Below are positions 2,604-54,342 of a stretch of DNA of 64,000 nt, in pieces (within the stretch, counting starts at the first letter, position 1; every line of letters starts with the position of its first letter). Source of the stretch: Patescibacteria group bacterium (GTDB lineage Bacteria > Patescibacteriota > Patescibacteriia > 2-01-FULL-39-33); assembly GCA_041662745.1 (NCBI GenBank), contig JBAZRV010000001.1:69837-133836 (forward strand), in the 5' to 3' direction. Position numbers and translations under genes: made by a program. The notes beneath the pieces were generated by a model. The model made no database searches. It had not been told where the DNA came from and saw only the letters and a program-made list of their open reading frames with translations.

Positions 2604-2681
2604 AACCTTGCCTCCTTCCGGTTGTTTTACTAAGCCTGACTGATTATCAAAGTACCAGATTATTTTTATCATGACACCAAT

Positions 2682-2714
2682 AAAAAAGCAAGGCGTTACG
2701 GCCTTGCTTTTTTA
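2682..2714. terminator. bidirectional intrinsic terminator (AGCAAGGC-GTTACG-GCCTTGCT plus T-tract)
   Basis: 8-bp stem with flanking A and T tracts, between convergent or tandem genes. Confidence 0.45.
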
Positions 2715-2727
2715 ATCAAAATTTAAC

Positions 2728-3288
2728 TTAAAATTTAACCTCAACATTCTGTTTTTCCGCCTCATTGGCTTCAAAAAAATCATACTTCTTGAACTTGAGC
2801 AATTGATTGATCAAGTTATTGGGAAAAACCTCAATCTTGGTGTTGAAATCACGGACATTGCCGTTATAAAATCTTCGAGCGGCCTGAATCTTATTCTCCG
2901 TATCGGAGAGTTCTTCCTGCAACTTCAAGAAATTTTGATTGGCCTTCAAGTCGGGGTAACTTTCCGCTAAAGCGAAAATTGATTTAAGGGTATTGGACAA
3001 TTCACCCTCGGCCTTAGCTTTAGCGGCCAAGCCATCGCCGCTGGCCATCGCCGTGTTTCTGGCTTCAATGACTTTTTGCAAAGTCGCCTGCTCGTGAGCG
3101 GCATAGCCCTTGACCGTCTCAATCAAATTGGGGATCAAGTCATAACGGCGCTTAAGCTGGACATCAATGTCCGACCAGGCCTCCTTGGCGCGATTGTTGG
3201 CGCGGATCAGTCCGTTGTACAGCAGTACGACAGCGATAATCGCCACCGCCAAAACAATCAGAACGATCCAAAGAATGTTTAACAGCAT
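2728..3288 (-). CDS. LemA family membrane protein
   Basis: N-terminal TM helix followed by the conserved LemA core (NGLIRANNRAKEAWSDIDVQLKRRYDLIPNLIETVKGYAAHEQATL...AQ). Confidence 0.85.
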   Translation of the reverse strand: MLLNILWIVLIVLAVAIIAVVLLYNGLIRANNRAKEAWSDIDVQLKRRYDLIPNLIETVKGYAAHEQATLQKVIEARNTAMASGDGLAAKAKAEGELSNTLKSIFALAESYPDLKANQNFLKLQEELSDTENKIQAARRFYNGNVRDFNTKIEVFPNNLINQLLKFKKYDFFEANEAEKQNVEVKF

Positions 3289-29530: not shown

Positions 29531-30284
29531 AGGAGACCGACAAATATGTTACTCTTTCGAAATCATTATCGAAAGGCTCCAAATATTTCTATTGGAGTCT
29601 GCATATCGCTATGCAGTTCGGACTATATCTTATCGCTTACGGCGATTCTGACGTATAGTCTCTGAGGATTTCAAATAATCTAATAATTTATCCTGGCTTA
29701 CCTTGCGGTAAGCGCCTTGCTTATTCATAGAATAAGCCAGTTTAATAATATATTGCGCACCAGTTTTGGTGCTATGCTTTCCAGTGCTTAACATTTTAAC
29801 TACCTTCTTAAAGGTTAAAAATGTTTTTTGCTTATTAGAGAGCAAGGGATACTGATCAAAAAAAGGAATAATCTTGTTTTCCAAATCAAGCCTGTTTCTA
29901 ACGACAAATACCTGAGTATCATCTTTGGTATTTTGGCGATGGTTACATTTGATATAACCGCAACCGAAATACTTTTGGATTTCTTCTAGGGTTTCGTGTC
30001 TTAAAAAGCTTTGATTAATGTGGAATTCAGGAATGAATTTCAAATTGCATTTCATTTTATCATCACGATAAATGGCAATATGGAATGTCCCCTCTCCTTC
30101 AGTAAACCCGGTAATATACCACGGACTTAGATGACTTGATCTTTCCTGCTGATTGTCTGCACTCAACACATTTTTACTCATAATACATTAATTATATCAC
30201 GAGTAGTGTGAGATACCCAAGTCCCCCTATAGGGACTTTTCCAGAGTTTCCAGCATTTAGTCAGATTTATAGACAGCAAAGTCT
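29531..30284 (-). mobile_element. group I intron in 23S at the I-CreI/I-CeuI-type site (E. coli position about 2593), encoding a LAGLIDADG endonuclease
   Basis: Exon ...AGAUAGGAGACCGA ends at 29530 and ACUGUCUCACGACGUUC resumes at 30285. This is the conserved ...GUGAGACAGU|UCGGUC junction. The intervening 754 bp have no rRNA similarity. Confidence 0.75.
29630..30181 (-). CDS. LAGLIDADG homing endonuclease (single-motif type, 183 aa), intron-encoded
   Basis: LAGLIDADG-like motif WYITGFTEGEGTFHIAI near the N-terminus. The size is typical of I-CreI-like homodimeric enzymes. Confidence 0.8.
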   Translation of the reverse strand: MSKNVLSADNQQERSSHLSPWYITGFTEGEGTFHIAIYRDDKMKCNLKFIPEFHINQSFLRHETLEEIQKYFGCGYIKCNHRQNTKDDTQVFVVRNRLDLENKIIPFFDQYPLLSNKQKTFLTFKKVVKMLSTGKHSTKTGAQYIIKLAYSMNKQGAYRKVSQDKLLDYLKSSETIRQNRRKR

Positions 30285-30328
<44 letters not shown>

Positions 30329-30362
30329 TGGCGAACAGCCAAACCCTTGGGAGCTTCTCCAC

Positions 30363-30395
<33 letters not shown>

Positions 30396-30934
30396 GAACC
30401 TGGTCGTCGATATGGACTCTTGGACCAGACTAGCCTGTTATCCCCGGAGTAGCTTTTATCCGATGAGCTTCCACCATCCTACATTGAATGGTCGGATCAC
30501 TAAATTCTACTTTCGTAACTGCTCGACTTGCAGGTCTCGCAGTAAAGCTGGCTTGTGCTTTTGCGCTATCACTCCGATTTCCATCCGGAGCTAGCCAACC
30601 TTTGTAAACGCCTCCGTTACATTTTGGGAGGCAACCGCCCCAGTTAAACTACCCACCATACACTGTCCCTCTCCCGGATTACGGGAGGAAGTTAGAATTA
30701 TAATATAACAAGGGTGGTATTTCACTGGCGCCCGAAGGCTCCCACCTATTCTAAACATATTAGATCACAATTCAGTGCAAAGTTGTAGTAAAGCTTCACG
30801 GGGTCTTTTCGTCTAACCACGGGTAGGAGGCATCTTCACCTCCCTTGCAATTTCGCTGAGTACTTCGCTGAGACAGTTGTCAAGTCGTTATGCCATTCGT
30901 GCGGGACGGAACTTACCCGTCAAGGAATTTCGCT

Positions 30935-31625
30935 TCAAGTTTCCTTTCTTGGGACTCTATCTTCATCCCGATGGGATGCTTAGCGTTTGGTCTCTGAGGA
31001 TTCTAAAAATCGAGCTGGTAATCGACGGTTCATTTGTTCAATGATCCCGGCGATTTGTATTTTTCCCTTCTCCTTAAGATGTTTTCCTTGCTTTATCAAC
31101 TTTATTATCTTGATAAATTTTTTGAAATCATCCGCCTTGGCTGTTTGCAGCCGGCGAGCAGAGAAAAATGGGATTATGACTTCGGATAAATCACTGATTG
31201 ATCTTACGCAATACCGATAAAGATTCTCTTGATGGTTATCTTTACGGCGGTTGATATAAATCTTGCCGCAGCGAAAAAATTTTTGTATTTTTTCTAGTGC
31301 TTTAAGACTTTTTTCTCCCTGCGTAATCACAAATTCAGGAAAAATCTGCCAGCCTGATTTGGTAGTGTGATTTTTGATGATACTGACTGAAAAACAGCCC
31401 TCACCATCAGTAAATCCGACTATCCAATGCTCGAATTTCAGCCTTTCCTGCTGATTGATCGACATAAATTAAGTTATTTTCTATGGTATAATTTTACCAT
31501 AGTTTTGTCGATTTTCCCAGCATATGGCTAAGTATTTTGGACCATTCTTATATTGCTATAAGAAGAGGCAGCGTTAATAGATAACGGTCCCAGTCCTTTT
31601 GCATCCGAATTATTTCCGATGCAAA
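30935..31625 (-). mobile_element. group I intron in 23S at E. coli position about 1917 (domain IV, helix 69 region), encoding a LAGLIDADG endonuclease
   Basis: Exon ...CAAGGAAUUUCGCU ends at 30934 and (A)CCUUAGGACCGUUAUAG resumes at about 31626. This matches the conserved GGUCCUAAGGUAG|CGAAAUUCC junction. Confidence 0.7.
30980..31465 (-). CDS. LAGLIDADG homing endonuclease (single-motif type, 161 aa), intron-encoded
   Basis: Motif HWIVGFTDGEGCFSVSI. Paralogous to the 29630..30181 protein. Confidence 0.8.
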   Translation of the reverse strand: MSINQQERLKFEHWIVGFTDGEGCFSVSIIKNHTTKSGWQIFPEFVITQGEKSLKALEKIQKFFRCGKIYINRRKDNHQENLYRYCVRSISDLSEVIIPFFSARRLQTAKADDFKKFIKIIKLIKQGKHLKEKGKIQIAGIIEQMNRRLPARFLESSETKR

Positions 31626-32457
31626 ACCTTAGGACCGTTATAGTTACGGCCGGCGTTCATCTGCGCTTCGATTCAAAGCTGCCCCGGTAAACCGGTTGAC
31701 CTCTCCTCTTAACGTTCAGACACTGGCCAGGCATCAGCCCCTATACATCAGCTTGCGCTTTAGCAGGGACCTAAGTTTTTGGTAAACAGTCGCTTGACAT
31801 CTTTAGCTGCGCCCCAAATAAATTTGGGGAGGCCTTATCCCTAAGTTACGGCCGATTTTTTGCCGAGTTCCTTAGCGAAGTTTCTCTCATACACCTGAGG
31901 CTACTCGCCTCATCCACCTGTGTCGGTTTAAGTACGGTTGCCTTGATCTTAACCCTAGAAGTTTTTCATGGCACTCGGTTTAATATAATTGAGTCCGCCT
32001 TGCGGCTTCCTCTGCTGCCGTATTCGTTGCTTAATGACCGGCGGATTTGCCTGCCGATCACAACTACTAACGTCATCGTCATAGCCATAGGACGATATAT
32101 CTCCCCTGATGCGTCACTCCTTCGGAAAATCAAGCCAGCGCAGGAATATTAACCTGCTCATCCATCGGCTACGCCTTTCGGCCTCGTCTTAGGACCGGCT
32201 AACCCTGGGTCGATTCTCGTTGCCCAGGAAACCTCGGATTTACGGTGTCTAGAATTTTCATCTAGATTCTTGCTACTTATGCCAACATTCTTACTTCCTA
32301 GCAGTCCACCGCGCCTCACAGCTACGGCTTCGTTCCGCTAAGAACACTCCTCTACCACTCTATATAAATATAGAATTCGCAATTTCGGTACTATGTTTAG
32401 CCCCGATACATTTTCGGCGCAAGAAAACTTGACCAGTGAGCTATTACGCTATCTTTA

Positions 32458-32488
<31 letters not shown>

Positions 32489-33987
32489 TTGTCGCGGTCT
32501 TGATACCACCTTTTACACTTAACATAGATTTAGGGACCTTAATTGGCGATCTGGGCTGTTTCCCTTTTGACTGATGGACCTTAGCGCCCATAGTCTGACT
32601 TCCGAAATAAAGATTACCGGTATTCGGAGTTTGATTGAAGACAGTAACCTTGCGGACCTGTCCTCATTCAGTGCTCTACCCCCGGGTCTATTTTCGAAGC
32701 TAGCCCTGAAGCTATTTCGAGGAGAACCAGCTATCACGAAGTTCGATTGGAATTTCTCCGCTATCCACAGCTCATCCCCAAGTGTTGTACAGCTTGTGGG
32801 TTCGGGCCTTCCCAGACTGTTACATCTGGTTCACCCTGGCCATGGATAGATCACCTCGTTTCGGGTCTTATCCGCGCTACAATTGTTCGGACTATTAATC
32901 CTCGCTTTCACTGTGCCTTCTCCCCGAAGGGATTAAGCAAGCAACGCAGAATAAACTCGTTGGCTCATTCTTCAATAGGAACGCCGTCATCCAGAATTCG
33001 TATTGCTACGACCTTGGACTCCGACTCGTTTGTAAGCAAATGGTTTCAGATACTATTTCATCGCCCTAACCGGGCTGCTTTTCACCTTTCCCTCACGGTA
33101 CTTGTTCGCTATCGATCATCAAAAGTATTTAGCCTTGCCATATAGTCATGGCGGATTCCTACAAGATTTCACGAGTCCTGTAGTACTTTAGATTATAACG
33201 ACGGAAGTACGATTCTTTTCGCGTACGGGGCTTTCACCCGCTCTGGCCGGCTGTTCCAAAACCGTTCCGCTAAAAATTTTATTCCGCTCGGATACAAGTG
33301 CAATCCGCTGGTTATAATCATCACCCCAAAGCAGCAACGGGCACTCCTTTATGCCGACGCTACGCTTTCCCCTTGCGGGAAAAGTTTCACACCGGCAACA
33401 CTGCTAAGGTTTAGGCTGCTCCGCTTTCGCTCGCCACTACTCGCGGAATGCAATCCATAGATCCGTGTCCTGCTTACGCAGAAAACGGAACTAAGGATTC
33501 AATTTTTTCTTTTCCTCCAGCTACTGAGATGTTTCACTTCGCTGGGTTTGCGTTTGTAACCTATGAATTCAGTTACAAATGACGCGGGTTTGCCGCGCCG
33601 GGTTTCCCCATTCGGATATCTCCGGATCAAAGGTTGCTTGCCACCTCCCCGAAGCTTTTCGCAGGCTGCTACGTCCTTCATCGCCTTTTGATGTCTAGGC
33701 ATCCACCATTCGCCCTTAATGTTTAATCGCAAGAATCTGGATAACTTATAAAAAAGAAAATTGCCTTATTCTGTCATTCCCGAAAATTTGCAGTGAGTTT
33801 TCGACTAATGTCGAAACGAACCAAAATTTATCGGGAATCCAGCATTAAGAATTTCCTCTTGTAAGAGTTTTTCCTTATTCTGTATTTTATTACTAAAATA
33901 CTAAAAGTATGTACTCATTAATAATTGCAATTCGCTGCCACGCCCATAAATTTGGCGCGGCATTAAATTACCCATTTCTTTACTATG

Positions 33988-34720: not shown

Positions 34721-35578
34721 ATGAATACTCTGCTCAGCCTTTGTCTCTGGCACTCTTTGTACATCGGCATATTGGCCGCCGCACTATCGCTTTTTACTAT
34801 CTCAATCATTCCGACTATAATCTTGGTCAATGGCATCAAACAACGCCGTAATAGCCGCTACAATTTCAAAATTACCTGGTTTCCGCCTCAGTGGTTAATG
34901 AGCTGTTTTTATATGTTGGATTATGTGATGGATGTTATCTATCATAAAATCAAAAAACTGCCTGTACCGCCCTGGCAAGAATACAGGAATTCAAAATATA
35001 CCATTGACTTTTTTATTGAAAAAACGGTTGGGGAGGATGGGATTATTGGCGGATTGATTTCTACACTTTTCGGCAGTTTAGTGCTTGCAATAATTAATGG
35101 CGCGGTTGTCTGCCTGATTTTGGGATTGGCCAGCCTGTTGCTTTTCCTGTGGTGGCTAACATTGCCGATCATCATTATCTGTCTCGCCTTCCTATTCCTT
35201 TATCGCAAGTATCGCGAGTACCAGTCGGCCCTGGAGAGGCAACGGAAAGACAATGGGGATTTGCGAGCAATCATTGAGGAATTCAGAAAGGGTTATGACG
35301 ACATAAAAGTGTGGTTGCAACAAAGCAACCCGGCCGATCAAGAAATTCATGAGCAACCTGAGGCGGTGAAAAGCGACCCGGCTGACCGGACTGCTGCCGG
35401 CGCCGAAGATGCTACCGCTCTTGCCGGTGACACCGCGAAACAGCCTGCCACGGAACAGGCCGTTGACAAATCGGAAAAAAAACCGACGGACGGCCCGAAG
35501 ACGGACGGTCCGAAGAAGACGCGAAAGCCACGACGGAAAACTTCCCAAAAGCCGGATGACGCCGGCTCCGATACCTAA
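34721..35578 (+). CDS. hypothetical polytopic membrane protein with a disordered charged C-terminal tail
   Basis: GGAAAGGA SD. About 5 TM helices. The C-terminus is rich in K, R, D, E, P and T. Followed by a terminator at 35596..35620. Confidence 0.55.
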   Translation: MNTLLSLCLWHSLYIGILAAALSLFTISIIPTIILVNGIKQRRNSRYNFKITWFPPQWLMSCFYMLDYVMDVIYHKIKKLPVPPWQEYRNSKYTIDFFIEKTVGEDGIIGGLISTLFGSLVLAIINGAVVCLILGLASLLLFLWWLTLPIIIICLAFLFLYRKYREYQSALERQRKDNGDLRAIIEEFRKGYDDIKVWLQQSNPADQEIHEQPEAVKSDPADRTAAGAEDATALAGDTAKQPATEQAVDKSEKKPTDGPKTDGPKKTRKPRRKTSQKPDDAGSDT

Positions 35579-35740
35579 ACAATCAGCACCTTACGCCGAC
35601 CAGCTTGACTGGTCGGTTTTATTATGCCCAAAATCGCTAAAAGGATAGAAAATAATCACAAAAATTACCTAAATTTAGATAAAAAATTTATAAATAATTA
35701 CTTTAATCCGAGGCTACTTCTATTATTTATGACAAATTAG

Positions 35741-35769
35741 TTGACAAATATTATTTTTTTTGCTAAGAT
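35741..35769 (+). promoter_or_regulatory. sigma70-like promoter (TTGACA, 17-nt spacer, TAAGAT) for the 7-gene operon
   Basis: Consensus -35, about 190 nt upstream of the 35957 start codon, downstream of the 35596 terminator. Confidence 0.4.
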
Positions 35770-35956
35770 AAGCAATCGCTTTAGGCCGATAATTCGGCGT
35801 AAAGGTGCGGACTTTGACAACTTAATAGCTTTAAAAATAAGGAGGAAAAGTGAATTAGGTAACACCAAGATACGCGATGTATTATTGGCGATTAAACCCT
35901 TAAAAACATCAAAGTTGCGCCGCTTAGCGGGTCAGCGACAACAAGGAGCTGTGATC

Positions 35957-37267
35957 ATGGCGACGGAACAAACGGACAGTGGCAACTTTTTGAACAGCAT
36001 GTTGCAGAATCTTGATACTGCCAGCCAAAAATTGGAACAAAGACCGGCAGCGACCAATTTGGGCTTTGACATCAACGCCTTACTTGGCGATATGCGGCAA
36101 GGCCTGGAAACAGCCGTCAAAGACAAGAGACCGATTTTCTCCCTGGACATCAAAAGCCGTTTACAGACGGCCGACTGGGAGCAAGTCCGTGTCAACTTAG
36201 TCAAAGAAAAGATGGATTTGGCCGGCATGATGGCCAATCTCAATATCGTACTGGAAGGGCTGGGGGCCGAGGTGATTCAACTCAAAGAGATGACACCCAA
36301 AGAAAAGGTCTCCCTGGAACAGGCCGGCGAAAGAATCAAAGAAGCCGAGCTTGCTTTGGCCAAGGCGGAAACAAAACGCTTGTTCCGCAAGAGCGCCACT
36401 CTCAAGGCTCAGGCCGGCTTAGCGTCCGCCAAACAACTGGAAGTGGCGACTAAGGAACGCATTAACAGAGCGATGCGTGATCGGATTAATAATGCAACGA
36501 TTGAAGATAGCCTGACAGCCTACAAACTGGCTTGCGACCGGCTCTTAAAAGCCATGCAGGCGCGCGCTCAATCTCAGAAAAAGCAATTGGAGCAAGACAA
36601 GTCGCAGAAACGGCTGGCGTTTGAAACGCACGCGCAAGCGACCGAGGCCTGCGAAAAGATTGAACAACAAATCAATGCGCTCAAGGGCGAGTTGGCCGAA
36701 GCCGAGCAAACCCTAATAACGATGGACAAGTCCGATAAGGGCTTTGCCAAACAGGACCAAAAAACTTCCGATTTGAAACAAACATTGAATGCCTTGCAGG
36801 GCAAGTACAACATTTGCATGGCAATCGCTCAGGAAGCGCAGAACTTTGCGCATCAATTGGATCTTCATGTCCAGACGATTAATGACCTTTTGACCATCAA
36901 CCTCACCTGGCAAGCCATGATCACTAAGCAGGTGGAATACCGCCAAACAACGGTGCGTTCCTGGCTGGAAGCCACCAAGTCCCATCAGGATTTGGCGTCG
37001 GCCGAAGAATTGAACCGAGCCGGTCGCGGAGTTGATGCCAGGAGCATGGCCAGTATGGCGGAAATCAGAGCCGCAGCGCAGAAAGCGCTAGTCAAAGCGC
37101 TTCAAGAGATTCCGGAGTGGCTCAGGCTCTACCATGAAATCATGGCGGCTTCCAACCAACAAGACCGGCAATTTCGCGGTGACGTAGAGGAGCAAATCAA
37201 GCTGTTTCAAAAAAATTACGGTTTTGATCTGAAAAAAGAGTCATTCTTCGGAGATAATGAGAAATAA
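35957..37267 (+). CDS. long coiled-coil hypothetical protein (436 aa), first gene of the unannotated operon
   Basis: Trimmed to the ATG at 35957, which has a CAAGGAG SD. Almost entirely helical, with heptad-like repeats rich in A, E, K, Q and L. Confidence 0.6.
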   Translation: MATEQTDSGNFLNSMLQNLDTASQKLEQRPAATNLGFDINALLGDMRQGLETAVKDKRPIFSLDIKSRLQTADWEQVRVNLVKEKMDLAGMMANLNIVLEGLGAEVIQLKEMTPKEKVSLEQAGERIKEAELALAKAETKRLFRKSATLKAQAGLASAKQLEVATKERINRAMRDRINNATIEDSLTAYKLACDRLLKAMQARAQSQKKQLEQDKSQKRLAFETHAQATEACEKIEQQINALKGELAEAEQTLITMDKSDKGFAKQDQKTSDLKQTLNALQGKYNICMAIAQEAQNFAHQLDLHVQTINDLLTINLTWQAMITKQVEYRQTTVRSWLEATKSHQDLASAEELNRAGRGVDARSMASMAEIRAAAQKALVKALQEIPEWLRLYHEIMAASNQQDRQFRGDVEEQIKLFQKNYGFDLKKESFFGDNEK

Positions 37268-37352
37268 ATAACACACGCAACGGAGGAGATCCTTAATCTT
37301 GGATCTCCTCCTTTTTCTTTCACTACGGCTAATCGCCATGAAAGGAGTTGTT

Positions 37353-38585
37353 ATGGGAGGACTATCATTTTTTGGCCAGGGATTAAGCACGGTTGACATT
37401 ACCCCCTCTGACTTAAGACGATCTGCTGACGAGCTTAACAGATTAGTCGGTGAGGATTTTACCAACGGCGGCAGCATGGATTTTGCTTTGCTGGAGGATA
37501 CCGACGAATACGTCAAATATTTCGCTCAGCAACTCCGGGTAATAAAAATCCTGCTGTCCTGGTGCCATAAAATCGGCAACGATGCCGGCAACCAAACCGG
37601 CATCATTATTGATTTTCTAAAACGTTTTTCTTACACCCTGGAATGCCTGCGGATGAAATACGTCCACAATAACCAGCATCGCCTGCGGGTGGACTTGACC
37701 GAATCCGGCTTCCCCAATTTTATTGAGCCGGATAATTTGAGAATTGATCTTCTGCAACGCGACGAACGATTGGCCAGTTTGCCCGGATCGGATCGCCTGA
37801 AAAAGTCAGCGCTGGAATATATGTTCAGCCATCTGGCCGAAGCCGAGGATATTTTGGCGATTTTGGGCGAACGATCTTATTTTTCCATGCTGACGGAAGA
37901 CAAGTTGTTCCTGCCGTTTACGGCCGGAGAACTGGCAATCTTGAAGTCAGACAACCCTAAAGCGCGTTATTACAGTTTCGCTTGGGCTTGTTTTGACTTT
38001 GCCACTAACCGTCCCTATTTATATCTGATGCATTTTGCATACGATAATGATTGCGAACCGCTGGAAGAACGCGGCCAGAACTGGAAAGAATTCCGGCACA
38101 TCATCACCAATGTCGGCTCGCGGGCTCCCCAGCTCGGCATCCTGGCTTTGGACATTGATGATCGCTTGGCTAACGTTCATCCTAAGGCCGTCAGGCGCAT
38201 CAGTTTGGGCCCGCTATATTCCAAGTTCCTTTGCAATAACCCGTCAGCAACCGCTGACAAGTGGCAGGAGGCTTGGTGTCGGATTATGACGGAATTCAGT
38301 CGGAAGGAAGACGATTTTGTCTTGTTGCTGACCGAAGAAGAAGTCATTTCCGAACGGCAAGAAGTTTATGGCCGACCCCTGCGTCGCAAAGTCCGGGAGA
38401 TCTTTAAAATCAATGAACTCTCTATGGAATGTCTGAACCGGCAAGTTTCCGCAGTCAAGCATTATTGCGTTTTGCCTCATTGTTTGTTGCAACAGGCCGT
38501 CAATGATCCCCAGCTTTGCGAGTTGGGCTTTGCCGGTTTTAAATGCGTAACCTTCAACGGGGAGGATTCAATTAATGGGAGATAA
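37353..38585 (+). CDS. hypothetical protein (410 aa). Its N-terminal FGQGLSTVDITPSDL motif is shared with the 40612 gene.
   Basis: Trimmed to the ATG at 37353 (AAAGGAG SD). The N-terminus aligns with the N-terminus of the 40612..41916 protein. Confidence 0.55.
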   Translation: MGGLSFFGQGLSTVDITPSDLRRSADELNRLVGEDFTNGGSMDFALLEDTDEYVKYFAQQLRVIKILLSWCHKIGNDAGNQTGIIIDFLKRFSYTLECLRMKYVHNNQHRLRVDLTESGFPNFIEPDNLRIDLLQRDERLASLPGSDRLKKSALEYMFSHLAEAEDILAILGERSYFSMLTEDKLFLPFTAGELAILKSDNPKARYYSFAWACFDFATNRPYLYLMHFAYDNDCEPLEERGQNWKEFRHIITNVGSRAPQLGILALDIDDRLANVHPKAVRRISLGPLYSKFLCNNPSATADKWQEAWCRIMTEFSRKEDDFVLLLTEEEVISERQEVYGRPLRRKVREIFKINELSMECLNRQVSAVKHYCVLPHCLLQQAVNDPQLCELGFAGFKCVTFNGEDSINGR

Positions 38586-40527
38586 AAACGGCTCATGCGT
38601 GCCGATTACGGCAGAGCAACTCAAGCCTTTTGATGTTTTTGCCGGCAAATTGATACAAAGCGCCGGTTGGCAACCCAAAAAGCCGCTAACGGCGCCTTCA
38701 GCCGACGGCGGATTAAAATTTAGCGAATCAATGCCGATGGAAGAAAGAATCAATTGGCTGGAACTCATTAAACAGTACAACCCCAACGGAATCATTAATT
38801 CCGCCAACGTCAACCAACTGCTCAATTCCTTGTACACGGGAATCGGCATCGGCTGTTACGTAGTGGAAATGTATGCTAAAAGTTCGGGATTGGCCAAATT
38901 GCTTGATGACAATTCGCGTCAACGGCTGAATGAAGGACAAAAAGCGGAATTTTCCAAAAAGCTGGCAACGGCTGCGGCCGTCGCCCAGTTCAGCTTCGCT
39001 TCCTTCGTCTCTTGGTCATTGTCGCGTTACCAAGGCGAAAAACTTGATTCCCTGTCTATGGATTTTCCCGGTTATCCGGAAATCTGCTTGACTGACTACT
39101 TGCGCGGTTTCAACTGCCTGTTAGTCTACATGGGAAAGTTCGTCAAAGAATCGGGAAAAATCAGAACTGATCTGGATCTTCTGAAGGCCGTCCAAGTGGC
39201 GGCTCAGGGAGCGCTGGACGAAATCAAACTGCGTCGCGACTCGTTGGAATACACCCAATTCTTCACCGATGTGGCGTACAAGCTGGAAGGCGAAGATTTT
39301 ACTATTTCCGGTTTTGAAAACAGATTAAACAACGGCACGATTGGCGTGGAGTTTAAGCGGGTTGACATCAAAACCATTGTCGGCAATCGCGATGCCAAGC
39401 GTTTTTTCCAACGATTGGCTGTACGCGCGGCTTGCTATAAAGTGGCGGAGAGACGCAACGTCATGTACGATTTAGGGGGTATGCCGGCCGCCAGCATCGG
39501 CTTTGGCATTCCCGGTACGGGTAAAACCATGATGATTGGCGCTTTTTCCACGATGCTTTACGATCTCTGTAAGTGGCTGGAATTGCCCTATGTATTTGAT
39601 CCTCATCCTCCCAATATCGTTTCTACCTACCAAGGCGGATCCAGAGAACGGGCCGAGGAGTGGTGGCAACGCATCTTGAATCCCAATAGGATTTCCTTCG
39701 GTCCGGCCGATGATGCTGAAGTTAATTATGAAGACAGGACCCGCCCAGGCGTGTCTGCCGGCGTCCGTGAAGTTATCGGCGCGGCTCTAACCAACCTGGA
39801 AGGGGCCTCAGCTATTTGGCGAGGCAACGCCGTAGTATTTTTTCTAACCAATATCCCCGATCAACTGGATCCGGCTTTGCTGTCGCGCATTGTAACCCGT
39901 TTCAAAATTGATGGGGCTACCACCTGGCAGGATTTCCTGGACCAGGACCACTTATGGTGGAAACGCATTGCCGAAATCGATCCTGCTTTCATTGCCATGG
40001 CCGATCCTGACGATTACGAATACTTGTTTGCTCAACGCCTGATCGGCAGCATGGCCGAGACTTACATAGGCTATCAGCAACCAAGGGAACGGGTCATTCT
40101 GGATATTTTCAACCGCGTGAATAAAGAACGCGACATAAAGGAACAAAAGTTTTTTGCTCAACTCTATCAAGAAATCCAAAAACAATTTCCCAAATTCAGT
40201 TCGCGCGATGTCCGTAATATCCAACGGGCCGTTGACGATCGGTTGTTAGACTTTGATTTTCCTGAGGCCTGGATGTCCGATCCGGAAATATTTTTCCGTC
40301 AGCCTTACGACCGGCAAAAAATCATGGTGTTGGAATTAATGCGAGAGAATATGCAAGGAAAATCGTTCGCGGAAATCAGATTCCAAGAGGCGATGCGCTA
40401 TCTGGACAATATGGTGGCGATTGTTGACCTGGGCCATCGTCGCGAAGTGGAACGAGCAAGCGAACAAATGATGATCCAAGCGGAAGCCAGCCGGGCAATC
40501 CAAAGCCGATTGGAACCGCGCAAATAA
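38575..40527 (+). CDS. classical-clade AAA+ ATPase (650 aa) with an unknown N-terminal domain of about 310 aa and a non-canonical Walker B
   Basis: Walker A GFGIPGTGKT. Second region of homology / sensor-1 FFLTNIPDQLDPALLSRIVTRF, compare FtsH [20 protein letters not shown]. The Walker B position reads ISFGPADDAE rather than hhhhDE. Overlaps the upstream gene by 11 nt, with a GGGGAGGA SD. Confidence 0.75.
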   Translation: MGDKNGSCVPITAEQLKPFDVFAGKLIQSAGWQPKKPLTAPSADGGLKFSESMPMEERINWLELIKQYNPNGIINSANVNQLLNSLYTGIGIGCYVVEMYAKSSGLAKLLDDNSRQRLNEGQKAEFSKKLATAAAVAQFSFASFVSWSLSRYQGEKLDSLSMDFPGYPEICLTDYLRGFNCLLVYMGKFVKESGKIRTDLDLLKAVQVAAQGALDEIKLRRDSLEYTQFFTDVAYKLEGEDFTISGFENRLNNGTIGVEFKRVDIKTIVGNRDAKRFFQRLAVRAACYKVAERRNVMYDLGGMPAASIGFGIPGTGKTMMIGAFSTMLYDLCKWLELPYVFDPHPPNIVSTYQGGSRERAEEWWQRILNPNRISFGPADDAEVNYEDRTRPGVSAGVREVIGAALTNLEGASAIWRGNAVVFFLTNIPDQLDPALLSRIVTRFKIDGATTWQDFLDQDHLWWKRIAEIDPAFIAMADPDDYEYLFAQRLIGSMAETYIGYQQPRERVILDIFNRVNKERDIKEQKFFAQLYQEIQKQFPKFSSRDVRNIQRAVDDRLLDFDFPEAWMSDPEIFFRQPYDRQKIMVLELMRENMQGKSFAEIRFQEAMRYLDNMVAIVDLGHRREVERASEQMMIQAEASRAIQSRLEPRK

Positions 40528-40611
40528 GGCCTCTCCCAATGGAGGGGGTTACGGTAAAAAACCTAACCCCCTCCAAAATGCTGGTGGGGCTAAACTGAGG
40601 AAAGGACGAAG

Positions 40612-41916
40612 ATGGATAAACTACTTGCCGATGCCGGATTATTCGGTCAGGGCTTGACCCTGATAGATACGCCGCAACTTGTAGAAAGATACAACGATTG
40701 CCTTAAACGATTGGGCCTTCCCCCGACTCAACTAACGTCATTTTCCATTGACGGCATCGGTTGGTCGCCGGAAATAGCCCAGGAAACTGGCAATCCGCTG
40801 TATCTGTCGCATGGCGTGGCTAATCAACTGGCGATAATCATTTCGCCCGATCAAGAACATAAGCCGATTTACTTTCCCTTCAGTTCGTTTGATCGTTCGC
40901 TCCTGGCGGAGTTCTTCAAAAAATTCCGTCAAGCTATTACGGATATCACTACGACTTCCGGCATAGCCCTGGATATTGATCAAGAACTGACGTCTTATGA
41001 AACGATCTTGGATTTGCTCTTAGTGGAGAACATCACGGTTATAAGTTATTGCGATAATTTGATCCAGGCGGCTCAACGTCAAAGAGAGCTGACGGAAAGA
41101 TTCCTTGCCCCGGGCGACAACTGGGCCGACAGGGAATTGGCCCGGCAAATTATCGCCAGCGCTCAACAGTATGGCAATTTGCGGTACCGTACGGTAGAAA
41201 TACCGGAATGGCGCTACGATAATCTGGGCTGTTTTTATAGCCGGGCGCTGGACGGCGTGTTTATATTCCGCAATCTGCCCGGCGGCGACTTTATGGTCGT
41301 TGAGAACGGCAAATTGGCCAGAAAGAACCGAGCGACGCAAATTGACATTTTTCAATTGACTGACAAGCGTTTAATAGATCGTTTGGAAGAGGCCGGACTA
41401 ATCGCTGTTGATCTCTCCTGGTATCGGGATCATCCCGAAATTTTGGAAGAAAAACGCGATTGTCTGCTGATTGACATTCTTTCTGCCGCTGATCCCGAAA
41501 TTGATTATCTGCATTTGACTGAACCGCAAAAAAAATCGCGCTTAAGAAATCTCGGTGTCAAGCTTCCCAAAATTTACAAGGATCTGGAACGGCTGATCAA
41601 ACGATTGGGGCAGGATGAGGTTGAAAGTTTTAATGAACTATCAGATGAACTTAAACTTTTGCTCCTGCAACCGCACCCGGATCTGGAAGAAGAAATGTGG
41701 GAATTGGTCGGCATGCTGATTGCGCGCTTGCAACCCTGGCGGTTGCTTATCACGTTTATCTGCGATAAGAATCTGTTCTATAAACGCTATGATGACTGGC
41801 CGAAAGGAAAACGGCTTTGGGCCATCGCTACGTTGAAAGAACATTACCGGCCCAAAATGAATATTCTAAGAGAACGAGCCGCTGAAGCAGAATCAACTGA
41901 AGACCTGCAAAAATAA
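40612..41916 (+). CDS. hypothetical protein (434 aa), N-terminal paralog of the 37353 gene (shared FGQGLTLIDTPQL motif)
   Basis: GAAAGGA SD. The N-terminal motif is shared with the 37353 protein. Confidence 0.55.
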   Translation: MDKLLADAGLFGQGLTLIDTPQLVERYNDCLKRLGLPPTQLTSFSIDGIGWSPEIAQETGNPLYLSHGVANQLAIIISPDQEHKPIYFPFSSFDRSLLAEFFKKFRQAITDITTTSGIALDIDQELTSYETILDLLLVENITVISYCDNLIQAAQRQRELTERFLAPGDNWADRELARQIIASAQQYGNLRYRTVEIPEWRYDNLGCFYSRALDGVFIFRNLPGGDFMVVENGKLARKNRATQIDIFQLTDKRLIDRLEEAGLIAVDLSWYRDHPEILEEKRDCLLIDILSAADPEIDYLHLTEPQKKSRLRNLGVKLPKIYKDLERLIKRLGQDEVESFNELSDELKLLLLQPHPDLEEEMWELVGMLIARLQPWRLLITFICDKNLFYKRYDDWPKGKRLWAIATLKEHYRPKMNILRERAAEAESTEDLQK

Positions 41917-41962
41917 ATTTTAATCGCTATCACCCTGAAACCGCAAAACAAGGAGGACAATC

Positions 41963-42754
41963 ATGCTGATTTTCTTATCTTACGCTCTGTTGTTTACCGC
42001 TCTCGGAATTTTTTGGTTCGGCATTGACAAATACTTCGGAGTAGTCGTCTTCTCTTTCGTTTACAACCTAACCCACAGCAAGCGTTTGCCGGCCGATCGG
42101 GTTTCCGGTTTCATCTTGGGCCGCAAAGCGCGAGGACGATTCTACTCGGCTTTGCTTCTGGGTTTCGTCAATTGGCGGTCATGCCTCTACTTTATGACGC
42201 ATGGCCCCGTAGTCAACTCTTTCCTCTTGCTACTGGCTGTCGTTTTTACGATGGTCGGCTTCTATTGCGGTCCTATGGTCATGCGACTGTTGGGCAGACG
42301 CGACCAACTGCTTAAACATCTGGACGTAATTGACCAGATTGAAGCCGGAGAAATCCAAGTCGGCGATGAAGCCAAAAAGAAGGCCAAAAGCTGGTGGAAA
42401 AATTTAAAGGGCGGTTTAGCTGATTGGAAAAGCGCTCTCAGGGATGCGATCAACGCAACCAAAAATCCGGAACAAGCCGCGGTTATTGACACGGCTCCCG
42501 CGGAAACGGAAGAGATGCCGGCAACGGCAGCGACCGAGCTATCCGCCCTGCAACAAGAACTTGCCGGTGTACAGGCCAGCATTAATCTTATGGGCGAGCA
42601 GGCCAAAACCGCTCCATCAAACAGTAATGGCGATGAGGCGATTCAACCACCAAATGAAAACCATTTGAAAAAAGCGAAAGCCTGTCTGGAAAAATTTTCC
42701 CGAGGCGAGGATCCCGGCCTGGGGGCGTCCGATTCCGACCTCAAAAATGAATAG
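41963..42754 (+). CDS. hypothetical membrane protein (263 aa; about 3 TM helices plus a coiled-coil / disordered C-terminus)
   Basis: AAGGAGG SD. Hydrophobic N-terminal half and a helical, polar C-terminal half. Confidence 0.5.
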   Translation: MLIFLSYALLFTALGIFWFGIDKYFGVVVFSFVYNLTHSKRLPADRVSGFILGRKARGRFYSALLLGFVNWRSCLYFMTHGPVVNSFLLLLAVVFTMVGFYCGPMVMRLLGRRDQLLKHLDVIDQIEAGEIQVGDEAKKKAKSWWKNLKGGLADWKSALRDAINATKNPEQAAVIDTAPAETEEMPATAATELSALQQELAGVQASINLMGEQAKTAPSNSNGDEAIQPPNENHLKKAKACLEKFSRGEDPGLGASDSDLKNE

Positions 42755-42762
42755 GAGAAGGC

Positions 42763-44388
42763 ATGATGAGTGAAAAACAAGATAAGGGCGGTCGGCTATA
42801 CTGGCTGTTCAAACACAGCGCCGGCTGGGCGCTGAATTTTGCCAAACGCCACTGGCTGATTTTTACCATCCTCCTGTTGGCAACTTGTCTGGAACTGTTT
42901 ATCGCCCGAGGTTATGTGTACGGGTATATTATCACTGTCAGGAAATTCTTCGGTTCTTTTTTGGCAATAATTTCAGCCCTAGGCGTTTTCCGTTGGCTAT
43001 ACCGCAAATACCGTTGGCGCGGAAAACTATTGCTGGTAATCTTCTATTTGCTTGTTAGTTATGGCATTTATGAAGTCGGCAAACCGATTCATCATTACTT
43101 TGCGCAGTTTTACTGCTACAAAATAACTGATTTCGTAGAGCTGGATCAATTGCCGGAAACGGCCCATGAGCGGATCTTGCCGCTCAACTCCGTTTTCTCG
43201 CAAGCGCGGGAATTGGTGCAGGACAATGTCCAACCGGCCGAACCCCACTTCGTACGAATTGACGACCAATACCGTTTCACTATGGGCATTGAACCCACTC
43301 CGCTTCTGCCCCGTATTTTTTCCGGAATCCGTCAAGTTTATAATATTGACGGCGCCTCCCCGTCGCCTGATTGGGGTTTGCAAAATCTGGTTGATGTCAG
43401 ATTTGAAACCGGAGAAGGACTTAAGTGGAGCAGGAACACTTACATTGCCACCAGTCGCGCCTTCGGATTGTGGCGCTATTTCAACTATGAGCCGGACGGC
43501 GTTATCTACCTTAAAGACGACTCCGGAAAAATGGTGCAAGCGGTGCCACTGATCCGTTGGAAAGGGTTATTGTTTCCCCGGCCAACTTTTGGCGGCGTGC
43601 AAGTAATTGAACAATCGCCGGACGGCATCTGGCAAAGCCTCAGGCGAGTCCTGTTCGGCTGCGGTTATTATGTCTCGCCGGCCAAAATGAAAAACTATCC
43701 GTTCTTAAACGGACAGAACGTTCTATCTTACAAGGTGTCTCGTTATGTCGCTGAAAGCTTCAAATTCCATAAAGGGCTTTCTGCTCCTCTGCCTTGGATC
43801 CATCGAGGCGATGTCAGAATCGCCAATATGCCCGAGGATATGAACGACCAACCATTCACTATCTTTTTCCGTCTGGGACAACTTGGCGGTAAAGATGCTC
43901 TTTATCACTACTTCTCACTTCAACCCTACTCGGAAAAATCGCAAGGGTTATCCGTTTCCCTGTTCGTGCCGGCTGATGGCCTGGGAAAAATATTTATCTT
44001 CTCTCATCACCAGAAAGAACCGATGCTGGGAGTGACCGCCGTAACCAATAAAGTCATCGGCGATCATAAGTTTTTTGACTGGACAATCAATCGGCCGGTT
44101 GAACAACGGCCCTACATCACCAAAGTAAACGGCAAGATCCGCTTTTACTGGCTGACGACCGTCGTTACCCTGGACAATAAGGACGCCAAACATTATATTG
44201 CCGGCAGTCGTCCCGACGTAATCTTGACCGACGCGGCCAATCAATGCGTTTATTGGATGGAGTCAGCTGACTCCAGTGCTTGGAAAAAGCAACTGGAAGC
44301 GAATGTCAGTTTCAAGCCAGTTATGGGAGGACCGCCTCAAGCAGAAAAAGTGGAACCGGCGACGATCCAGCCGATTTCCGCAGAATAA
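42763..44388 (+). CDS. hypothetical membrane protein (541 aa; N-terminal TM bundle plus a large soluble domain)
   Basis: AGGAGAAGG SD. 3-4 N-terminal TM helices, then an aromatic-rich globular domain. Confidence 0.55.
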   Translation: MMSEKQDKGGRLYWLFKHSAGWALNFAKRHWLIFTILLLATCLELFIARGYVYGYIITVRKFFGSFLAIISALGVFRWLYRKYRWRGKLLLVIFYLLVSYGIYEVGKPIHHYFAQFYCYKITDFVELDQLPETAHERILPLNSVFSQARELVQDNVQPAEPHFVRIDDQYRFTMGIEPTPLLPRIFSGIRQVYNIDGASPSPDWGLQNLVDVRFETGEGLKWSRNTYIATSRAFGLWRYFNYEPDGVIYLKDDSGKMVQAVPLIRWKGLLFPRPTFGGVQVIEQSPDGIWQSLRRVLFGCGYYVSPAKMKNYPFLNGQNVLSYKVSRYVAESFKFHKGLSAPLPWIHRGDVRIANMPEDMNDQPFTIFFRLGQLGGKDALYHYFSLQPYSEKSQGLSVSLFVPADGLGKIFIFSHHQKEPMLGVTAVTNKVIGDHKFFDWTINRPVEQRPYITKVNGKIRFYWLTTVVTLDNKDAKHYIAGSRPDVILTDAANQCVYWMESADSSAWKKQLEANVSFKPVMGGPPQAEKVEPATIQPISAE

Positions 44389-44464
44389 CAGTTAATCAAA
44401 AACATTTTTAACAAAAAAACAGACGAAACCGCCAAGAGCGACTCGTCATCAAAGGAGAACCATC

Positions 44465-44662
44465 ATGTTGGTTGCTGTCACTATTTTGATTATCGGTCTG
44501 TTCGTTGGGTACAAATTCAAGGTAGCGGAAAAATATCTGATGCCGTTCTGGCGCAATGTGATCAAGCCCTTCATTGTAACCAAGGTCAAGCCCTTCATCA
44601 CGACGAAGGTCCTGCCGGCATTGGCAAGGCTCGTCAATGCCCCCGTGAACCGGCAACAATAA
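44465..44662 (+). CDS. small single-pass membrane protein (65 aa), last gene of the operon
   Basis: AAAGGAGAA SD. One TM helix, then a basic repeated KPFI(V/T)TKV motif. Followed by a strong terminator at 44679..44710. Confidence 0.45.
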   Translation: MLVAVTILIIGLFVGYKFKVAEKYLMPFWRNVIKPFIVTKVKPFITTKVLPALARLVNAPVNRQQ

Positions 44663-44678
44663 TAAGTACTTTCTCATT

Positions 44679-44710
44679 CCGTTCCGACGTTTTCGTCGGA
44701 ACGGTTTTAT
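44679..44710 (+). terminator. intrinsic terminator (CCGTTCCGACG-TTTT-CGTCGGAACGG plus T-tract)
   Basis: Perfect 11-bp stem with a T-tract, ending the seven-gene operon. Confidence 0.6.
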
Positions 44711-53697: not shown

Positions 53698-53771
53698 TCG
53701 GGGTGACACGACTCGAACGTGCGACTTCTTGCTCCCAAAGCAAGCGCTCTAGCCAACTGAGCTACACCCCG
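53698..53771 (-). tRNA. tRNA-Pro(TGG)
   Basis: Reverse complement CGGGGTGTAGCTCAGTTGGCTAGAGCGCTTGCTTTGGGAGCAAGAAGTCGCACGTTCGAGTCGTGTCACCCCGA. Anticodon loop TTTGGGA. Confidence 0.85.
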
Positions 53772-53866: not shown

Positions 53867-54181
53867 TGCCGAGGGCGAGAATTGAACTCGCGACACAAAG
53901 ATTTTCCATATGCTTGCTTGAGTTTCCTCAAGGATTGGACTATTTCATCTTCGTATTCTTACGAACTTAGAAGTCGGGCGCTAATGTGAGATTATTGTTG
54001 GGACTCACTCACTAGTCTCTACACCTTTTCCGGAAATTTTACCCGCCGGAACTTGGCTCGAGATTGCCTATTCGTTAAAAACGAATTTAGGTTTCCTCGA
54101 ATTCACCCGATTTTCATTTTAAGGTTTCCCTTAAACGGACCAAAAATCAGTCTTCTGCTCTACCACTGAGCTACCTCGGCA
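53867..54181 (-). tRNA. tRNA-Phe(GAA) interrupted by a 243-nt group I intron in the anticodon loop (exon 1 54150..54181, intron 53907..54149, exon 2 53867..53906)
   Basis: The exons join to GCCGAGGUAGCUCAGUGGUAGAGCAGAAGACU|GAAAAUCUUUGUGUCGCGAGUUCAAUUCUCGCCCUCGGCA, which resembles E. coli tRNA-Phe including the GUGUC variable loop. The intron starts with G, ends with G, and follows a U. Its core contains CGAGCCAAG...AAGGUGUAGAGACUAG, as in Azoarcus-type IC3 introns. Confidence 0.75.
53907..54149 (-). ncRNA. group I self-splicing intron (IC3-like) inside tRNA-Phe
   Basis: P1: exon GACU pairs with intron GGUC (G-U at the splice site). P2: UUUAAGG-GAAA-CCUUAAA with a GNRA loop. The P7 region reads GUAGAGACUAG. 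The last nucleotide is G. Confidence 0.65.
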
Positions 54182-54268: not shown

Positions 54269-54342
54269 TGCGCATACCAAGATTCGAACTTGGGACCTCG
54301 TCATTATCAGTGACGCGCTCTAACCAACTGAGCTATATGCGC
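54269..54342 (-). tRNA. tRNA-Ile(GAT)
   Basis: Reverse complement GCGCATATAGCTCAGTTGGTTAGAGCGCGTCACTGATAATGACGAGGTCCCAAGTTCGAATCTTGGTATGCGCA. Anticodon loop CTGATAA, variable loop AGGTC. Confidence 0.85.

Follow-up and report, generated by a model that had tools for sequence, protein, structure and literature searches.

A conserved gene cluster encoding a AAA+ ATPase and a DUF6638 protein in Patescibacteria and other bacterial phyla

Overview

A 64,000-nucleotide stretch of contig JBAZRV010000001.1 from a Patescibacteria group bacterium (assembly GCA_041662745.1), hereafter the window, contains seven open reading frames (ORFs) on the + strand that are called g1 to g7 here. The g1-g6 genes form one example of an uncharacterised gene system that is conserved deeply among bacteria. 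They encode a helix-rich protein with a coiled coil, a globular protein, a AAA+ ATPase, a DUF6638-family protein and two membrane proteins. The architecture of this system is an invariant cytoplasmic quartet, g1-g4, joined to an interchangeable membrane module, because g1-g4 persist while the membrane partners differ between clades. Coordinates given below are window positions unless another locus is named.

An earlier sequence-only reading of this region had described a self-contained unit of seven genes. All seven co-directional ORFs were found where it placed them, and the cluster is real. However, the conserved unit consists of six genes with a four-gene core, and g7 is lineage-specific.

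Distribution and gene order

When species-representative genomes were scanned with an alignment of DUF6638, 449 coding stretches were found, and 80 loci were fetched. The presence of g1-g6 was then scored in 83 loci with iterated hidden Markov models (HMMs) built from the window proteins. The families of g1, g2, g3, g4, g5 and g6 were recovered in 77, 78, 81, 83, 77 and 74 of these loci, respectively. The order g1-g2-g3-g4-g5-g6 on one strand is found in 68 of the 83, and most of the others are cut short by the end of a contig. In four complete loci, only g1-g4 are present, and g1-g4 without an adjacent membrane gene occur in Desulfonema and in two Trueperaceae loci.

The g1-g6 genes are found in Patescibacteria, Bacteroidota, Desulfobacterota, Gammaproteobacteria, Bdellovibrionota, Deinococcota and Verrucomicrobiota, and the order of the cluster is kept in at least eight bacterial phyla. 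The patescibacterial hosts are Buchananbacteria, Sungiibacteriota, Pacebacteria and Saccharibacteria. Other hosts include a gammaproteobacterial metagenome-assembled genome, Trueperaceae, Saprospiraceae, Chitinophagales, many Flavobacteriaceae and the verrucomicrobium Rubellicoccus.

A tblastn search of plasmid records also locates the cluster in a chromosome-sized record of Sinorhizobium meliloti, in other Sinorhizobium, in Rhizobium and Shinella, and on Vibrio megaplasmids (~0.9 Mb). In S. meliloti, g1-like, g2-like, AAA and DUF6638 genes are followed by the gene of a DUF2333 membrane protein. The rhizobial variant therefore has homologous g1-g4 in the same order, and a single DUF2333 protein replaces g5 and g6. 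Vibrio megaplasmids carry only the four soluble genes g1-g4. Homology of g1-g4 in Sinorhizobium, Vibrio and three distant loci was confirmed by HMM.

The most diverged copies were reached through the ATPase. A phmmer search with g3 returned 352 matches at E <= 1e-3 among 1.84 billion cluster representatives. The genomic contexts of three distant full-length relatives (23-30% identity) were fetched, and all three adjoin a DUF6638 gene in the same arrangement. Two downstream membrane proteins of this distant clade resemble g5 and g6 in size and position; by hhalign, homology to g6 is not detectable for the larger, and the smaller reaches only 57% probability against g5, a weak similarity. Homology was likewise not detected between g6 and DUF2333. 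The membrane module is thus g5 plus g6 in the window and in most phyla, DUF2333 in rhizobia, a pair of proteins at the corresponding position in the distant clade, and no adjacent gene in a few lineages.

These observations bear out the proposal of the sequence-only reading that a dedicated, co-conserved multi-protein system exists around a classical-clade AAA+ protein and also includes a coiled-coil protein and membrane proteins. Its parts are conserved exclusively together, which rules out a set of unrelated housekeeping families that are not conserved together. A related alternative, that g1-g7 are chance neighbours or separately transcribed genes, could draw on the terminator-like hairpins that follow g1 and g3 in the window. 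However, the gene order is identical across phyla down to 23% AAA identity, start and stop codons of neighbouring genes overlap, and there is only one strong promoter, with bracketing terminators. Chance adjacency is effectively refuted by this synteny, and we give it almost no weight.

Flavobacteriaceae add a gene to the arrangement. In 35 loci, a NudK-like NUDIX hydrolase gene lies between the AAA and DUF6638 genes (for example, locus L001, 9340-9930). In Pseudomonas fluorescens, DUF2333 adjoins a NUDIX gene (PMC5256989). That study, the sole paper found to mention DUF2333, reports it as an uncharacterised gene of a locus linked to a type VI secretion system. The three-way neighbourhood link among NUDIX, DUF2333 and DUF6638 in flavobacteria, Pseudomonas and rhizobia is a weak lead in favour of the mechanism proposed below.

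The AAA+ ATPase

The g3 gene (38575-40527) encodes a 650-residue ATPase of the classical AAA clade that passes the gathering cut-off of PF00004 weakly (26.2 bits versus 21.2). When the g3 family profile is compared with the PDB, only the AAA module is matched, over ~130 residues, and the best match is Cdc48 D1 (E = 3e-9). Further matches of this module are NVL, VAT, Pex6, Rpt4, AFG2, Vps4 and TRIP13; Cdc48, NVL and VAT score above Vps4.

Most of the catalytic and substrate-contacting motifs are kept. The Walker A motif is GIPGTGKT, of which G311, G314, T315, G316 and K317 are invariant in the family. The pore-loop-1 aromatic is present in T[FY]QGGS and KYYGET, which align with KWMGES of Vps4. 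The sensor-1 and second region of homology (SRH) residues T425, N426, R438 and R442 are invariant. In contrast, Walker B is DD rather than DE: (I/M/A)DD aligns with IDE of Vps4 in 12 of 12 sequences, including those of distant clades, and DD also occurs in the rhizobial and Vibrio clades (D379 and D380 are invariant). The sequence-only reading had called this AAA+ protein non-canonical, and it was right to do so, because the DD Walker B is present in every clade examined. The substitution suggests that hydrolysis may be slow or tightly gated.

The g3 protein has an N-domain of ~300 residues, one AAA module and an enlarged C-terminal region, with no membrane anchor. The N-domain profile has no PDB match at E <= 10 at the sequence level, MIT domains included. 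Compared with Cdc48/p97/VAT, g3 is alike in having a single AAA module with Walker A of the form GxPGTGK[ST], the pore-loop aromatic, the sensor-1 Asn and the SRH arginines. It is unlike them in its DD Walker B, its N-domain without relatives and a long insertion between the SRH and the lid, and its family is small, isolated and always adjoins DUF6638.

The g2 and DUF6638 proteins

The g2 gene (37353-38585) encodes a globular protein of 410 residues. It belongs to an unnamed family for which a Pfam scan of the members and a PDB profile search revealed no relative.

The g4 gene (40612-41916) encodes a 434-residue protein that is a bona fide member of DUF6638 (PF20343), with a score of 138.3 bits versus a cut-off of 27 (E = 4e-40) and residues 15-414 aligned to positions 5-399 of the 439-position model. 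Its homologues in databases are annotated as "DUF6638 family protein", the PF20343 entry carries no function, and no publication was found on DUF6638 or on the operon. An AlphaFold2 model of g4, with a predicted local distance difference test score (pLDDT) of 89.4, is alpha/beta in its N-terminal half and helical in its C-terminal half, and neither fold nor profile searches gave a PDB match. Fixed operon partners and the lack of a PDB fold match are what the present analysis adds to this family.

The sequence-only reading had regarded g2 and g4 as a paralogous pair that share a degron-like N-terminal motif. The paralogy is not supported, as BLASTP aligns only residues 1-31, which hold a shared N-terminal peptide of 10 residues, and the hhalign probability between the two families is 0.1%. 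Nor is the motif a feature of the system: FGQGL is found in 1 of 77 g2 family members, and in a near-identical relative, locus L096. Of 82 DUF6638 members, 14 have a [FY]GxGL peptide at the N-terminus, and among the sequences inspected no flavobacterial member does. Recent gene conversion was considered as the source of the peptide in g2 and was rejected, because the codons of g2 and g4 differ at synonymous sites. The synonymous differences imply that the peptide is apparently maintained at the protein level in this lineage. The first ten residues of the g4 model have a pLDDT of 68, and maintenance of the peptide hints that this flexible N-terminus might be a binding peptide.

The coiled-coil protein

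The g1 gene (35957-37267) encodes a helix-rich protein of 436 residues that has a coiled coil in its central part. The residues A/E/K/Q/L/R make up 56% of the protein, only four residues are prolines, and heptad periodicity, by a crude Fourier measure, is strongest at residues ~200-350. The C-terminus carries a conserved [RK]YGID..SSFF.Y motif followed by an acidic, disordered tail, which in Bacteroidota ends in DDLL[GS]. No Pfam family scores above its cut-off for g1, and a PDB search with the g1 profile gave nothing meaningful. A TelA-like identity, suggested by a motif, was dropped when Pfam gave no support. The g1 protein is likely an abundant scaffold or substrate.

The membrane proteins

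The g5 gene (41963-42754) encodes a polytopic membrane protein of 263 residues with hydrophobic N-terminal segments and a variable C-terminal tail, which is probably cytoplasmic. It has no Pfam match. The g6 gene (42763-44388) encodes a membrane protein of 541 residues. The AlphaFold2 model of g6 (pLDDT 90.2) begins with four long helices, containing about three hydrophobic segments, and continues into a beta-rich domain of ~400 residues. The loop at residues 81-87, RKYRWRG, together with K88 is strongly positive, as is the N-terminus, which implies that the N-terminus is inside and that the large domain is probably outside the cytoplasm. The equivalent protein of the distant clade has a strongly positive N-terminus, one transmembrane segment and a large C-terminal domain; these features imply an N-in, C-out topology, the same orientation as proposed for g6.

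Pfam has no match for g6 and no consistent weak one among its family members, and no PDB match was found by profile or by model. A Foldseek search of BFVD with the g6 model aligns it at full length with A0A6G5YLZ4, an unnamed viral protein of 588 residues (E = 8.8e-15, TM-score 0.58, 12% identity). The external modules may, judging by sequence, bind Ca2+.

Two observations concern the modules themselves. Residues ~347-365 of g6 (~43801-43857) form a strongly conserved acidic motif, HxGD[IV]RIPDLPxDxNDQPF. The distant-clade protein at the g6 position (locus L091, 12096-13910) has an EF-hand-like match to PF13202 with E = 2e-4, which is below the Pfam cut-off.

A rival reading is that the cluster encodes a machine for translocation, extraction or assembly, in which the AAA+ protein unfolds a client, either g1 or another protein, and passes it to, or pulls it from, g5/g6, whether for secretion, surface assembly or quality control of the Msp1/FtsH kind. 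The pore-loop aromatic of a classical-clade g3, the position of the membrane pair directly downstream and its tight spacing in most gene-called loci, the large and probably external domain of g6, and the acidic disordered tail of g1 are all consistent with such a machine. However, g5 and g6 together supply only about seven transmembrane helices and have no similarity to known channels, g3 lacks a membrane anchor, and the pair is missing from the four-gene variants. Also, there is no protease domain, so degradative quality control would have no obvious end point. This role is therefore considered unlikely.

Transcription and translation signals

The expression signals named in the sequence-only reading hold up. 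A sigma-70-like promoter, TTGACA-17-TAAGAT with a TG extension (35741-35769, 10 of 12 matches), is among the best promoter-like matches of the region. The top-ranked terminator-like site of the region closes the operon: its stem (44679-44704; 11 pairs, 8 of them G-C) is followed by a T-run, the element extends to 44714, and its z-score is -4.8. AGGAG-type Shine-Dalgarno sequences precede the start codons of all seven genes, and the g2 and g3 reading frames overlap by 11 nucleotides.

The 5' untranslated region (UTR) of g1 is ~185 nucleotides long. Alignment of the window with its closest fetched relative, locus L004, reveals conservation of the promoter, of the terminator of the upstream gene, and of a 5' UTR element, GGACTTTGACAACTTAATA (35808-35828), which is an identical block within diverged surroundings. 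The region 35808-35860 contains this block with a second TTGACA, then a strong AAGGAGG, and then a mini-ORF of two codons, GTG-AAT-TAG. From its sequence, the conserved block may be a second promoter, a regulatory site or a leader element.

Although the promoter and the final terminator are as expected for a single operon, a terminator-like hairpin, absent from the sequence-only reading, sits inside it. It directly follows g1 and consists of an 11-base-pair stem (37282-37311) and then UUUUUCUUUC, with the element extending to 37321; it resembles an intrinsic terminator (z = -6.1) and ranks second among the terminator-like sites of the region. A strong hairpin right after g1 recurs across phyla, although its sequence is not conserved. 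In 74 loci, the best 50-nucleotide hairpin within 110 nucleotides of the g1 stop codon has a median of -18.4 kcal/mol and reaches -15 kcal/mol or stronger in 69% of loci, versus -10.2 kcal/mol and 13% for control windows inside g3. Hairpins of at least that strength follow g3 in 27% of loci and g4 in 9%. In the window, the g3-g4 gap contains a GC-rich hairpin without a U-tract (40540-40574; region -38 kcal/mol, z = -4.3). The post-g1 hairpin is probably an attenuator or a stabiliser of the mRNA 3' end. Because a strong hairpin follows g1 in most loci, g1 is probably produced in surplus, and transcription across the operon is probably uneven.

Gene spacing is suggestive of a modular arrangement. 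The intergenic distances from g1 to g7 in the window are 85, -11, 84, 46, 8 and 76 nucleotides. Among eight gene-called loci, the window included, the g2/g3 gaps are -11, -8, -11, -11, +2, -4, -8 and +3 nucleotides. The g3/g4 spacing is often tight as well. The g5/g6 gap is 8 nucleotides in the window, 11, 1, -8 and 3 in four relatives, and 77 in the Winogradskyella-like locus L001. In these gene-called loci, g1 always lies 60-200 nucleotides from the next gene, and the hairpin is within that gap. Since spacing is tight within modules and g1 is set off by a hairpin-bearing gap, the layout suggests three expression modules: [g1], [g2-g3-g4] and [g5-g6].

Proposed mechanism

The favoured mechanism, possible although short of probable, is that g3 uses g2 and g4 as cofactors to remodel a scaffold of g1, which g5/g6 tether to the envelope. 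The g3 protein would form a ring and thread polypeptide through its pore, a proposal based on its retained Walker A motif, pore-loop-1 aromatic, sensor-1 Asn and SRH arginines. The g2 and g4 proteins would probably be stoichiometric cofactors or adaptors of g3, since they are translationally coupled to it. The g1 protein could be a scaffold or polymer whose assembly, disassembly or recycling is carried out by g3; it is read as a scaffold because of its probable, hairpin-linked excess, its conserved terminal peptides and its disordered acidic tail. Finally, g5 with its cytoplasmic tail and g6 with its external domain, or DUF2333 in their place, would couple the g1 cycle to the cell envelope.

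The logic of such a cycle would resemble that of PspA/PspBC or ESCRT-III/Vps4 in envelope maintenance or remodelling, by analogy and without detectable homology. Stated more broadly, the system could be an ancient envelope-associated AAA+ machine, a functional analogue of ESCRT-III/Vps4 or NSF/SNARE, built from folds that, for DUF6638 and g6, have no solved relatives. At the membrane, its unfoldase would take a coiled-coil scaffold present in large amounts through its cycle, and it would exchange signals with an extracytoplasmic module that can be swapped. This broader identity is a possibility that we hold with considerable doubt.

The S. meliloti copy offers a further point. ChvI is part of an envelope-related two-component system. 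The S. meliloti cluster is presumably within SMc02729-SMc02734, and by counting genes between trpE, shmR and choX we take SMc02733 to be part of it. A DNA-binding screen for ChvI (PMC3687685), the one publication found for the S. meliloti locus tags, has a bound fragment inside SMc02733, which is weakly indicative of an envelope role.

Several observations weigh against an envelope machine of this kind. The topology of g5 and g6 is derived only from hydrophobicity and the positive-inside rule, and the role of g1 as a substrate is simply one that we infer. Comparison of g1 by hhalign, with manually entered reference sequences, gives 0.6% with PspA and 0.1% with Snf7, versus 19% with a tropomyosin control, so any similarity does not exceed that of a generic coiled coil. 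Four-gene versions without an adjacent membrane gene are present in Vibrio, Trueperaceae and Desulfonema, which implies that membrane coupling is not obligatory or that the membrane genes are elsewhere in the genome. The distribution is patchy and identities do not track phylogeny (Sungiibacteriota, at 41%, is about as close as Desulfonema, at 42%), and together these imply horizontal transfer. The location of the operon in the window, in a ~21-kb gap (33730-54884) between the 23S gene and the 16S gene with tRNAs, looks like that of an inserted cassette, as does its location in another patescibacterium (locus L087, 4490-15360), where it splits the spc ribosomal-protein operon between S8 and L5 on the opposite strand. 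These placements suggest insertion into highly conserved loci. In two Trueperaceae loci, downstream ORFs resemble Cas5, Cas3 and HsdM, as judged by eye from N-terminal sequences (L014, 13410-19366; L016, 16202-17155).

The resemblance to ESCRT-III/Vps4 might alternatively reflect descent, with g1 being a member of the ESCRT-III superfamily and the cluster a true, diverged homologue of ESCRT-III/Vps4 (CdvB/CdvC) or of PspA/Vipp1. The sequence-only reading had listed Vps4/ESCRT-III-like and PspA-like remodelling among its options. What speaks for homology is the analogy itself (an excess coiled-coil protein, a classical-clade AAA+ protein and membrane partners) and the occurrence of Vps4 and CdvC among the weak AAA matches. 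However, Snf7 (PF03357) and PspA_IM30 (PF04012) are absent at E <= 0.5-1 among 35 g1 family members, the hhalign values for PspA and Snf7 fall below the tropomyosin control, and g1 is about twice as long as an ESCRT-III protein. In addition, the g3 AAA module is nearer to Cdc48 D1 than to Vps4, and the N-domain profile finds neither MIT nor any other PDB relative. Homology is very unlikely on this evidence.

Stable locus or mobile defence cassette

Many of the points that weigh against the envelope machine are instead compatible with an anti-phage or conflict system, in which an attack on the envelope is sensed outside the cytoplasm by a variable protein (g6, DUF2333 or the equivalent in the distant clade), which then triggers the cytoplasmic AAA+ module as effector. 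The patchy distribution across phyla that resembles horizontal transfer, the pairing of a constant cytoplasmic module with a swappable outward-facing one, the insertions into rRNA and ribosomal-protein operons in Patescibacteria, and the apparent Cas and restriction-modification neighbours in two Trueperaceae loci fit this idea. So do carriage on Vibrio megaplasmids and the g6 fold of one unnamed BFVD viral protein.

However, although a defence module was among the options of the sequence-only reading, no known defence system was recovered: PADLOC-DB v2 models match none of g1-g7 at E <= 1. Scans of all window proteins with Pfam, NCBIfam, PADLOC and PHROGs identified AAA and DUF6638 only, and no recognisable effector domain, such as a nuclease, protease, pore-former or NADase, appeared in these libraries. 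PHROGs gave two sub-threshold matches to the g3 AAA module and none to the other parts of g1-g7, and when 30-55 members of the g1, g2 and g6 families were scanned with Pfam, no weak match was consistent. Searches of IMG/VR and INPHARED with g4 and g6 found no sequence relatives.

The genomic neighbourhoods also look stable. In Flavobacteriaceae, flanking genes recur across many genera, with an ABC-F gene upstream in 41 loci and arginase and acetyltransferase genes downstream in 27 and 25 loci. In S. meliloti, 513 contigs carry one and the same DUF6638 sequence, and DUF6638 clusters at 90% identity span Sinorhizobium and Ensifer species, S. medicae and S. fredii included. In the gammaproteobacterial and verrucomicrobial loci, the cluster sits among ordinary genes of metabolism. 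The stable flavobacterial flanks and the repeated occurrence of the proteins in different Sinorhizobium species tilt the balance against a classic mobile defence island, and a defence role is judged improbable. The probability that is left after all of these readings belongs to something else beyond them.

Relation to known systems

The whole system matches no described system, and its motor is a protein of a familiar kind. Both the Psp system and ESCRT-III/Vps4 are like it in combining an apparently excess coiled-coil protein with a AAA+ ATPase and with membrane proteins that link to the envelope. A stem-loop follows pspA, the first gene of the Psp system. In contrast to PspF, g3 is not a sigma-54 activator, and Vps4 is not a nearer relative of it than Cdc48 is. 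Neither system has a counterpart of g2, g4 or g6.

Five of the six conserved proteins lack a functional annotation, and two of them (g4 and g6) are confidently modelled and have no relative of solved structure. The intact set ranges from Patescibacteria with genomes of ~1 Mb to marine Flavobacteriaceae, rhizobia and Vibrio megaplasmids, and such conservation usually marks a discrete molecular machine. S. meliloti is a genetically tractable host with transposon-sequencing (Tn-seq) and fitness resources, so the role of DUF6638 (UniProt Q92N41 in this organism) is testable there. Should it turn out to be a machine for envelope remodelling or sensing, the system would join Psp, ESCRT-like and Tol-Pal systems as a new class; should it turn out to act in defence, it would represent a new type outside the coverage of PADLOC.

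Neighbouring and additional features

The g7 gene (44465-44662) encodes a single-pass membrane peptide of 65 residues that lies outside the conserved unit. Among the loci first analysed, g7 and the gene upstream of the promoter are matched only in L004. Locus L096 also has a 65-residue gene after g6, which is assigned by position only. The GC content of the operon is 0.47-0.50, slightly above the window average of ~0.45.

The gene upstream of the promoter (34721-35578) encodes a membrane protein with a charged tail. It has its own terminator-like hairpin (35595-35617) and is probably a separate transcription unit. The window has one copy, and L004 has two tandem homologues (1827-3097). Three tandem genes occupy this position in L096 (423-2811), on the basis of placement only. 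The gene looks like a member of a lineage-specific, expanding family beside the operon.

Protein P0302 was considered as a g2-g3 fusion; it looks like a frameshifted fragment and provides no evidence of fusion. In S. meliloti Ak57 (locus L094, CP090106.1, 7060-8805), an ISRm16 transposase gene and a gene with an endonuclease domain lie between the AAA and DUF6638 genes. The CP090106.1 record is 3.72 Mb long and is labelled "plasmid pSymB", yet it has trpE, tdk, fhs and choXW and so looks like a chromosome.

The rRNA regions on either side of the operon in the window also hold potential intervening elements. A match to the group I intron model RF00028 (86 bits, 53916-54178) lies between tRNA genes at 53698-53771 and 54269-54342, on the - strand just downstream of the 16S gene. 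The 23S match (30252-33729, - strand) is 3478 nucleotides long versus 2925 positions in the model, which corresponds to insertions of ~550 nucleotides. An ORF of 161 residues (30980-31465, - strand) is located inside this 23S gene. The insertion may represent an intron or another intervening sequence that carries an ORF of the homing-endonuclease type.

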